Virus record (IMG/VR): IMGVR_UViG_2534681999_000015
DNA: 6,618 bases
From: a virus
Taxonomy: Duplodnaviria; Heunggongvirae; Uroviricota; Caudoviricetes
Reading direction: 5' to 3' (one strand)
In this document: positions 6,096 through 6,618 of the stretch, one piece after another
How positions within the stretch are numbered: the stretch's first letter is position 1
Layout of the letters: every line of letters starts with the position of its first letter
The notes under the pieces: model-generated
Seen by the model: the letters and a program-made list of their open reading frames with translations, nothing else
The model's database searches: none
Told to the model about the DNA's origin: nothing
Program-made: the position numbers and the translations under genes

Positions 6096-6122
6096 GCGAA
6101 AACGGTTTGCTGTAACGGCAGA

Positions 6123-6152
6123 GTTAAGTAGGATTGCTGCGGGTGCTTGAGG
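6123..6152 (+). other. 5' leader element of the hok mRNA, complementary to the 3' end (6493-6514); fold-back-inhibition (fbi)-type long-range pairing
   Basis: GUUAAGU (6123-6129) pairs with ACUUAAC (6508-6514); GCGGGUGC (6139-6146) pairs with GCACCCGC (6500-6507); UUGAGG (6147-6152) pairs with CCUCAA (6493-6498). That is 21 bp in total with one bulged C (6499) and a 9-nt internal loop, across about 350 nt. This is the architecture described for plasmid R1 hok mRNA. Confidence 0.5.
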
Positions 6153-6190
6153 CTATCTGCCTCGGGCATGAACACCAACGGCAGATAGAT

Positions 6191-6255
6191 AAAAGCCCCA
6201 CCCGACTATAAATCGAAGTGAGGCCCCTATATGCTCGTCACATATAGATTGCCTC
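6191..6255 (-). ncRNA. Candidate Sok-like antisense RNA antitoxin (boundaries approximate)
   Basis: Expected position for Sok: antisense to the leader and the mok SD/start (6218-6233). On the minus strand a hairpin GCCUCAC...GUGGGGC (complement of 6218-6224 and 6195-6201; contains a G-U pair that is a C-A mismatch on the plus strand) is followed by UUUU (complement of 6191-6194). A possible -35 TTGACC lies at complement of 6269-6274, but no convincing -10 was found. Confidence 0.35.
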
Positions 6256-6443
6256 TTACGGACCGAAAGGTCAAGGAGAAGCAGGCTATGAAGCAGCAAA
6301 AGGCGATGTTAATCGCCCTGATCGTCATCTGTTTAATCGTCATAGTGACGGCACTGGTAACGAGGAAAGACCTCTGCGAGGTACGAATCCGAACCGGCCA
6401 GACGGAGGTCGCTGTCTTCACAGCTTACGAACCTGAGGAGTAA
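6231..6443 (+). CDS. mok-like reading frame (in-frame N-terminal extension of hok; proposed translational-coupling ORF)
   Basis: ATG 6231 with GAGG (6220-6223) upstream. N-terminal extension MLVTYRLPLTDRKVKEKQA resembles the MokC N-terminus as I recall it (MLNTCRVPLTDRKVKEKRA). 70 codons ending at the hok stop, the same geometry as mok/hok. Confidence 0.5.
   Translation: MLVTYRLPLTDRKVKEKQAMKQQKAMLIALIVICLIVIVTALVTRKDLCEVRIRTGQTEVAVFTAYEPEE
6288..6443 (+). CDS. hokD: Hok/Gef-family type I toxin (small membrane protein), 51 aa; closest to HokD/RelF
   Basis: SD AAGGAG (6273-6278), ATG 6288. Product MKQQKAMLIALIVICLIVIVTALVTRKDLCEVRIRTGQTEVAVFTAYEPEE: a single transmembrane helix followed by the conserved RKDLCEV...TEVAVF motif. 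Essentially identical to E. coli HokD as I remember it, with one or two conservative differences. Confidence 0.9.
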   Translation: MKQQKAMLIALIVICLIVIVTALVTRKDLCEVRIRTGQTEVAVFTAYEPEE

Positions 6444-6511
6444 GAGACCAGGCGGGGGAGAAATCCCTCGCCACCTCTGATGTGTCAGGAATCCTCAACG
6501 CACCCGCACTT

Positions 6512-6539
6512 AACCCGCTTCGGCGGGTTTTGTTTTTTC
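6512..6539 (+). terminator. Rho-independent terminator at the 3' end of the hok transcript
   Basis: Hairpin AACCCGC-TTCG-GCGGGTT (6512-6529) with a TTCG tetraloop, followed by TTTTGTTTTTTCT. Confidence 0.8.
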
Positions 6540-6618
6540 TGGTCGTTCTGGTTTACAATCCATCCGTCAGCCTGAACAACTGGCACCTGCTGCGCCAGCA
6601 GAGACAACCGATGGCGCA

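Follow-up and report, generated by a model that had tools for sequence, protein, structure and literature searches.

The present analysis concerns a small toxin locus near the end of a 6,618-nucleotide (nt) stretch of viral DNA, IMG/VR record IMGVR_UViG_2534681999_000015. This whole stretch is called the window below, and all coordinates refer to it. An earlier note, made from the letters of the window, had described a complete hok/mok/sok-type locus at approximately 6100-6540, and all the features it listed were recovered there. Positions 6107-6540 very probably hold a canonical type I toxin-antitoxin module of the hok/sok family, intact and with a toxin gene of the hokD type (ckf, Z2054). 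We are just as confident that this locus is hosted by a lambdoid prophage of E. coli O157:H7 (O-island 57 (OI-57) / CP-933O, 'PPompW') and lies in its early-right region, with paa/adfO just upstream.

The toxin gene, hok (hokD / ckf / Z2054), lies at 6288-6443 on the plus strand and encodes 51 amino acids (aa). It was assigned from a Pfam match, identity to HokD, the RefSeq label and a primer match. The Pfam family HOK_GEF (PF01848) was found with 75.9 bits for a cut-off of 22 (E 1.7e-21). The protein is 98% identical to K-12 HokD (50/51 aa, the single change being T17I), which agrees with its earlier description as a near-identical HokD; identity is 90% to HokW, 80% to HokC, 39% to R1 Hok and 33% to HokB. 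C15 and the TR(K)xLCE and EVA motifs are kept in an alignment of Hok with HokD, HokW, HokC, HokB and R1 Hok. The Shine-Dalgarno (SD) sequence AAGGAG (6273-6278, plus strand) was read from the sequence and is kept in all family members. A UACG motif at the Tyr47 codon (6426-6429, plus strand), also read from the sequence, is a candidate site for A-to-I editing by TadA (Tyr to Cys; A6427). Editing of this kind at the homologous Tyr codon has been reported for K-12 hokD (6%), hokC and hokE (PMC12214031).

Upstream of hok, the Rfam leader model RF01794 covers 6141-6290 from its first to its last position (1-157 of 157), with 103.9 bits for a gathering score of 59 (E 1.8e-23). With PF01848 and RF01794 both matched, neither a toxin outside the Hok family nor a leader unrelated to hok regulatory elements was found. 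The start of the Rfam model, together with the alignment to R1 and hokW, suggests that transcription of hok begins at about 6141. The full-length mRNA of about 395 nt would then span 6141-6537 on the plus strand, as indicated by the Rfam leader match, the fold and comparative pairing. A putative promoter (6107-6134, plus strand) was read from the sequence, with a -35 TTGCTG (6107-6112), a 16-nt spacer and a -10 TAGGAT (6129-6134). The block AACGGTTTGC...GTTAAGTAGAAT is kept 5' of the tac (translational activator) box in many loci whose DNA further upstream is unrelated.

The locus was aligned to K-12 relBE-hokD, hokC/mokC and R1-type hok. In alignment A1 (the window, R1-type hok, K-12 hokC, hokB and hokW of Sakai prophage 5 (Sp5)), all the named regulatory elements line up, namely the tac box, the upstream complementary box (ucb), the SD and ATG of mok, the downstream complementary box (dcb), the hok SD and the fold-back inhibition (fbi) box. 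The sequences that line up are, from 5' to 3', GGGTGCTTGAGG (tac), the stem GGCTATCTGCC/GGCAGATAG, AAAAGCCCC (ucb), GAGG-ATG of mok, GCCTCTTAC (dcb), AAGGAG-ATG of hok and CCTCAACGCACCC (fbi).

The mok open reading frame (ORF) was taken from the ORF list. It comprises 70 codons (6231-6443, plus strand), is read in the hok frame and ends at the hok stop codon, an arrangement like that of the K-12 mokC annotation. Its SD sequence GAGG (6220-6223, plus strand) lies 7 nt 5' of the ATG at 6231 and is invariant in a second alignment of homologous loci, A2 (L008-L121). Among 68 unique homologous mRNAs, 58 carry an in-frame ATG 57 nt upstream (mok of 69-70 aa), and a 19-codon mok ending at the hok start is found in 9. 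A chance ORF was considered for the mok-like extension and ruled out by the conserved ATG and SD and by a frame kept open through compensating indels. By analogy with the known systems, we propose that mok and hok are translationally coupled.

On the opposite strand, alignment to the annotated K-12 sokC and sokB places a Sok antisense RNA of approximately 55 nt at 6239->6185 (minus strand), the ends of which we infer. In the predicted structure the 5' end of this RNA is single-stranded over 9 nt, and nt 1-16 can base-pair with the mok start codon and the spacer that precedes it. The predicted fold consists of the tail, a hairpin and then UUUUAU (-21.4 kcal/mol, z -4.66). A putative sok promoter (6246-6274, minus strand) was read by eye, with a -35 TTGACC (6274-6269), a 17-nt spacer and a -10 CAATCT (6251-6246). 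Its layout is like that of K-12 sokC, TTGACC-17-CACTCT, in alignment A1. The -10 aligns with that of sokW (TAACCT), whose mutation in a promoter-less construct abolishes antitoxin activity (PMC8621323). The mok-like in-frame extension, structured leader, candidate antisense RNA and terminator announced for this locus are thus each present, by the ORF list, Rfam, alignment and scan.

Folding of the 395-nt RNA (6141-6535) gave a minimum-energy structure of -164.8 kcal/mol, with a z of -7.56 against shuffles. In both the minimum-energy and the centroid folds nt 1-12 pair with nt 353-365, forming a tac-fbi lock. The tac box GGGUGCUUGAGG (6141-6152, plus strand), which is (nearly) invariant in A2, pairs here with the fbi box CCUCAACGCACCC (6493-6505, plus strand), which K-12 hokD retains. 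In the same full-length fold the ucb (6193-6203, plus strand) acts as an anti-SD sequence for mok and sequesters its GAGG. When the RNA was truncated in silico from the 3' end to or past 6490, tac moved onto ucb (nt 53-59; 6193-6199). In these truncated folds the mok SD is predicted to be largely freed, or, in one of them (3' end 6485), paired with the dcb CCUC (6252-6255, plus strand) within GCCUCUUAC; the dcb-region sequence GCCTCTTAC is kept across all aligned family members. The folds therefore predict a closed-to-open switch as in the R1 hok mRNA (summarised in PMC9841398).

The 3' portion of the transcript contains two further elements on the plus strand. A stem-loop GGCGGGGGA-GAAA-UCCCUCGCC (6451-6472) appears in all folds, with 98.5% of cells paired across homologues (helix 10); by analogy with R1 (PMC9841398) it is likely to be the protective end of the processed mRNA. 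An intrinsic terminator of the hok mRNA (6512-6540) was matched in the scan, with a stem at 6512-6529 followed by TTTTGTTTTTTC. Rfam also returned an isrK match at 6452-6533 (28.1 bits for a gathering score of 50, E 0.0044), a span that covers the 3' stem-loop, fbi and the terminator. It was set aside as probably a generic resemblance of two hairpins plus a terminator.

The structure was then compared with 69 homologous mRNAs. The fold is that of the window itself, one of the aligned sequences, and these are for the most part closely related; read with this in mind, 93.3% of cells were paired, versus 39-48% in slid controls, and 16 pairs changed on both sides, versus 3-8 in slid controls and a shuffle mean of 5.8 (0/500 shuffles reached 16). 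The helix sequestering the mok SD (helix 4) is the richest in such two-sided changes (4/9 pairs). In the tac-fbi helix (helix 1), 99.2% of cells are paired across the 69 sequences, and two pairs change on both sides, in one distant homologue each, e.g. from U-A to C-G. Given the z of the full-length fold and the compensatory changes across the 69 homologues, the locus is not a product of chance.

The mechanism that we propose combines RNA structures obtained in silico with kinetics and enzymes inferred from R1 hok/sok and hokW-sokW. The weak promoter TTGCTG-16-TAGGAT would give the mRNA of about 395 nt from approximately 6141. In the full-length form, tac-fbi pairing and occupancy of the mok ribosome-binding site by ucb would permit neither translation nor Sok binding. 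Slow 3' trimming to the 6451-6472 stem-loop would then remove fbi, so that tac switches to ucb as its partner, leaving the mok ribosome-binding site open. The unstable Sok of about 55 nt (6239->6185, opposite strand) would pair with the mok start region, blocking translation of mok and the coupled translation of hok, and the duplex would be marked for RNase III. Should Sok not be replenished, upon loss of the element, host transcription shut-off or prophage induction, Hok would be made, insert into the inner membrane and depolarise or lyse the cell. Sequence and predicted structure support this scheme well.

K-12 hokD (relF, third gene of relBEF in the Qin prophage) had been described in the earlier note as devoid of its own control region, which our comparison confirmed. 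Homology between K-12 hokD and the window covers 6274-6537 only, at 98.1% identity, and begins at the hok SD. Since it begins only there, K-12 hokD has no promoter, tac, ucb, mok start or sok. Upstream of the position homologous to 6274, K-12 has the end of relE, which stops 71 nt 5' of hokD. The two loci have in common the hok SD, coding sequence (CDS), 3' stem-loop, fbi and terminator, within this 98.1% identical segment, as well as a lambdoid prophage setting; a rem-like downstream gene family also occurs in many related loci. They differ in that K-12 has relBE upstream and no control region, whereas the window has the full leader, paa upstream and neither relB nor relE. A binding-protein gene in place of relBE had indeed been noted: 5194-5952 encodes a protein of SBP_bac_11 fold, and relBE is absent from the window. 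Of what defines HokD in K-12, the window therefore shows the orthologous toxin sequence but not the location directly downstream of relBE.

Because the leader is present in all other aligned members of the family, and K-12 hokD still has an orphan fbi and terminator, relBE-linked hokD is best read as derived. The K-12 fbi is a relic in this reading, as it makes sense only with its missing tac partner. K-12 relBE-hokD would then be a derived copy in which everything 5' of the hok SD was replaced. The earlier suggestion that the window carries the ancestral form of the locus is accordingly reasonable as an inferred history, given the leader in all other aligned members and in 97 of 103 surveyed loci and the orphan fbi of K-12. 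The accompanying words 'possibly functional' are consistent with the intact and conserved elements. The relBE-hok linkage is not confined to the E. coli Qin prophage, since a Kluyvera locus (L024, Kluyvera sp. CHPC 1.2972, 2406-3150) carries relB and relE, 96-97% identical to those of K-12, directly 5' of a leaderless hok. The CDS of this hok is 74% identical to that of the window.

The distribution of the leader was estimated from 114 loci with this Hok, 34 from species-representative genomes and 80 from IMG/VR, 103 of which include the hok start. A tac-bearing leader was present in 97 of these 103. The six leaderless loci are three of the K-12 relBE-hokD type, the Kluyvera relBE-hok locus, one degenerate copy and one at a contig edge. 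A protein identical to K-12 HokD is encoded by 59 of the 68 unique full-length leader-bearing mRNAs. Among 5426 complete E. coli genomes, the relE-hokD junction was found in 1165, the leader plus hok at >=80% coverage in approximately 2241 and the paa-hok arrangement in 664. The 'HokD' of K-12 is thus a truncated, relBE-linked minority form, and the common natural form has the full hok/mok/sok control region.

The window as a whole appears to be the early region of a lambdoid prophage, judging from its gene content. It contains, in order, a cI-like repressor gene (854-1261, minus strand), cro, a YdaT-like gene, a replication gene with a DnaT domain (1997-3112), a lambda-P-like gene, DUF1627, a fimbrial pseudogene region, the gene for the 252-aa protein of SBP_bac_11 fold (5194-5952) and the ORF pair 6231/6288-6443. 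Positions 1-6537 are 100% identical to many E. coli O157:H7 chromosomes, and 5950-6537 are 99.3-99.5% identical to deposited 'PPompW' prophage records. In RefSeq, 5194-5952 encodes Paa, an adhesin of the AcfC family, and the small gene carries the product name 'type I toxin-antitoxin system toxin HokD'. The pair has been named adfO (Z2053) and ckf, for 'cell-killing factor' (Z2054), of OI-57, where ckf is reportedly found with adfO in every case (PMC8565820). A published polymerase chain reaction (PCR) primer for Z2054, AAGGTCAAGGAGAAGCAGGCT (PMC4763077), corresponds to 6267-6287. A literature search for expression of Z2054/ECs1773 returned only microarray data for paa (ECs1772) and the use of Z2054 as a PCR marker.

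Several features of the surrounding DNA were observed in addition. Both the O157:H7 identity, complete from position 1, and the K-12 hokD homology end at 6537/6538, directly after the hok terminator; as the identity stops at 6537, the window as a whole is identical to no O157 genome in the collection. Positions 6538-6618 match other strains and phages instead (e.g. L010, L043, L057), at approximately 98%. The 6537/6538 position has the look of a mosaic joint created by recombination at the edge of the module. In O157:H7 strain PV15-279, IS1203 interrupts the DnaT-domain replication gene (L001, 2570-3880), which is uninterrupted at 2829-2831 of the window. The ORF fragments at 4464-5033 correspond to a gene just upstream of paa that related genomes annotate as a fimbrial-protein pseudogene with a frameshift. 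At 6072-6095, about 12 nt 5' of the hok -35, there is a perfect 24-nt palindrome, CCGATATGGGAATTCCCATATCGG, which no T-run follows. Copies that differ from it by one mismatch or a 1-nt deletion occur with the hok module in L043, L059, L085 and L103, loci that have no paa and differ in sequence further upstream; L055 has a variant. This palindrome could be an insulator, a terminator or a protein-binding site.

Variation among the prophage copies is concentrated at the Sok 5' tail and its target. In 63 sequences of the E. coli clade, the segment comprising the mok SD, mok start and Sok 5' tail (6220-6250) has a mean pairwise identity of 77.9% and occurs in 15 variants, whereas the corresponding means are 99.0% in the hok CDS and 96.5% in the dcb/sok-promoter segment next to it. 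The entropy of the locus peaks at 6221-6250 in alignment A2. With its short Sok hairpin, similar to that of hokC, the window falls into a minority class of about 11 loci; in most loci the hairpin is approximately 21 nt longer, as in hokW. The classes are separated by two single-base indels that compensate each other, so that mok stays in frame. Two IMG genomes have two loci each, too few to conclude from, with Sok tails that differ in one pair and are identical in the other. Diversifying selection for mutually orthogonal Sok specificities in lambdoid-prophage loci of the hokD/hokW clade is a tentative explanation of this pattern, possible though far from favoured. If it holds, each copy in a polylysogen (up to 9-10 places per genome) would stay 'addictive', unsilenced by its neighbour's Sok in trans, and the window copy, with its short hairpin and its unique tail, would be a specificity class by itself. 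The variation of the Sok tail and target bears in this way on cross-talk between co-resident type I toxin-antitoxin modules.

Several observations weigh against the reading of the locus as an intact and canonical module. A scan of 5900-6618 on both strands with a consensus at a threshold of 9/12 matches returned no sigma-70 site, so that the hok and sok promoters are based on homology and on reading by eye, and both match the consensus weakly. The sok -35 TTGACC is good, but the -10 CAATCT agrees with TATAAT at positions 2 and 6 only. Because of this weak match and of the scan result, expression of Sok from the window copy is putative. At the hok -10, the window and identical O157-type loci have TAGGAT, versus TAGAAT in nearly all others, including paa-linked loci that are 98% identical. 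TAGGAT is possibly a lineage-specific down-mutation, and together with CAATCT at the sok -10 it may lower expression of the window copy. The covariation support is inflated by the use of the window's own fold and of mostly close relatives. For the toxin, the NCBIfam scan gave no HokD-specific model, and its Hok-subfamily and HokA matches are all sub-threshold (44.3 bits for the Hok subfamily model, with a curated cut-off of 73), so that it adds nothing to Pfam. Transcription, mRNA processing and toxicity of the window copy are predicted from its sequence. Finally, chromosomal hok/sok loci are reported to show no post-segregational killing: the introduction of a recent survey (bioRxiv 10.1101/2025.08.07.668861) cites earlier work in which hokA, hokB and hokC showed neither such killing nor a response to rifampicin.

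These points bear on what the locus does for its host element, for which we considered three options that are not mutually exclusive. The locus might be structurally intact and physiologically silent, a hitch-hiking relic like the chromosomal hok loci of K-12. Those other than hokB were inactivated by insertion elements or genomic rearrangement, as PMC12214031 states, citing Pedersen & Gerdes 1999. We judge such silence quite unlikely, and equally so the explanation that would go with it, namely that weak promoters yield too little hok mRNA to kill and that the locus is kept through its linkage to the prophage and paa. The lack of a promoter passing the scan, the TAGGAT in place of TAGAAT, the poor sok -10 and the behaviour reported for chromosomal hokA, hokB and hokC all speak for it. 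On the other hand, none of the functional elements is broken, many O157:H7 genomes share the locus at 100% identity, compensating indels leave the mok frame open, paired positions of the RNA show compensatory changes, and the hok CDS keeps its 99.0% mean pairwise identity across loci with differing leaders. Moreover HokW, 90% identical and with the same first 48 leader nt (6141-6188), is expressed and active.

This last comparison leads to the possibility that the module is functional and serves prophage-induced lysis and phage release, as hokW-sokW does, rather than addiction or abortive infection. By analogy this is conceivable, although we regard it as doubtful. In Sp5, treatment with mitomycin C reduces the level of sokW RNA and increases that of HokW, and HokW helps lysis along; deletion of the locus delays lysis (PMC8621323). 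The window locus is a close paralogue of hokW-sokW in a lambdoid prophage of the same serotype. However, its genomic position is different, in the replication-nin/Q region and not at the attachment site/ea region, and induction may fail in those O157 prophage copies that carry IS1203 in the replication gene and the fimbrial pseudogene. The earlier note had instead proposed an addiction or anti-phage (abortive-infection) device, here for the prophage and its paa/adfO cargo, which we hold to be rather unlikely. It would fit with R1 hok/sok, which mediates post-segregational killing and reduces phage propagation (as cited in PMC8621323), with the reportedly constant association of ckf with adfO in OI-57 (PMC8565820) and with the approximately four-fold enrichment of hok in prophages (bioRxiv 10.1101/2025.08.07.668861). 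Killing nevertheless requires that the element be lost and its mRNA outlive it, and a single-copy prophage seldom excises; in killing tests, chromosomal hok loci have reportedly failed (introduction of the same survey). The adfO-ckf linkage may merely reflect their distance of about 330 bp, and the survey found no enrichment of Hok near defence systems.

Gene, family and genomic location were all known before. The novelty that the earlier note had implied does not hold, since RefSeq already names the gene hokD, ckf/Z2054 is known in OI-57 (PMC8565820, PMC4763077), family and mechanism are of textbook status, and the leader-bearing form is commoner than the relBE-linked one. The impact on annotation is also small, as the 12 hok genes of EDL933 and the 14 of Sakai (Fozo et al., PMC2887945) and their prophage enrichment have already been surveyed. 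In the recent survey, HokD served as a known-toxic control and 42/45 tested homologues were toxic (bioRxiv 10.1101/2025.08.07.668861). The only lead possibly worth following is that prophage copies which are nearly identical elsewhere vary mainly in the Sok tail and the sequence it targets.

Compared with the known systems, the locus shares with the prototype R1 hok/sok (parB) the tac/fbi lock, sequestration of the mok SD by ucb, the dcb, an overlapping mok and a predicted cis-antisense Sok, and would share 3' processing, by its predicted structures and the mechanism summarised in PMC9841398. For R1, that paper describes exonucleolytic trimming of the mRNA from its 3' end, cleavage of the Sok-mRNA duplex by RNase III, and killing once Sok has decayed. 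Unlike R1 hok/sok, which is plasmid-borne, the window locus lies in a prophage, its Hok is only 39% identical, its mok is in frame with hok with a common stop codon, and it is known from sequence. K-12 hokC/mokC/sokC (gef) is closer, with a HokC of 80% identity, a short Sok hairpin, an in-frame mok and a sok promoter of the form TTGACC-17-CA(C/A)TCT. It differs from the window in its location on the chromosomal backbone and in the disruption of its 3' end by IS186, which removes fbi.

The closest relative with experimental data is hokW-sokW of Sp5 (Stx2 phage), a toxin-antitoxin pair whose antitoxin activity partly requires RNase III and Hfq (PMC8621323). It resembles the window locus in its toxin (90% identity), in the organisation of tac, ucb, mok, the putative sok and fbi and in its residence in a lambdoid prophage of O157:H7. 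A primer used for deletion of hokW (PMC8621323) is identical to 6139-6188 of the window, and the first 48 leader nt are thus identical. Beyond this point the two diverge: in hokW the Sok hairpin is approximately 21 nt longer and the leader is 170 nt, versus 147 nt in the window, and the Sok 5'-tail and target sequences differ, as do the sok -10 (TAACCT versus CAATCT) and the Hok C-terminus (VDYESEK versus TAYEPEE). hokW lies near the attachment site and the ea region of its prophage, and the window locus lies between the replication genes and the nin/Q region.

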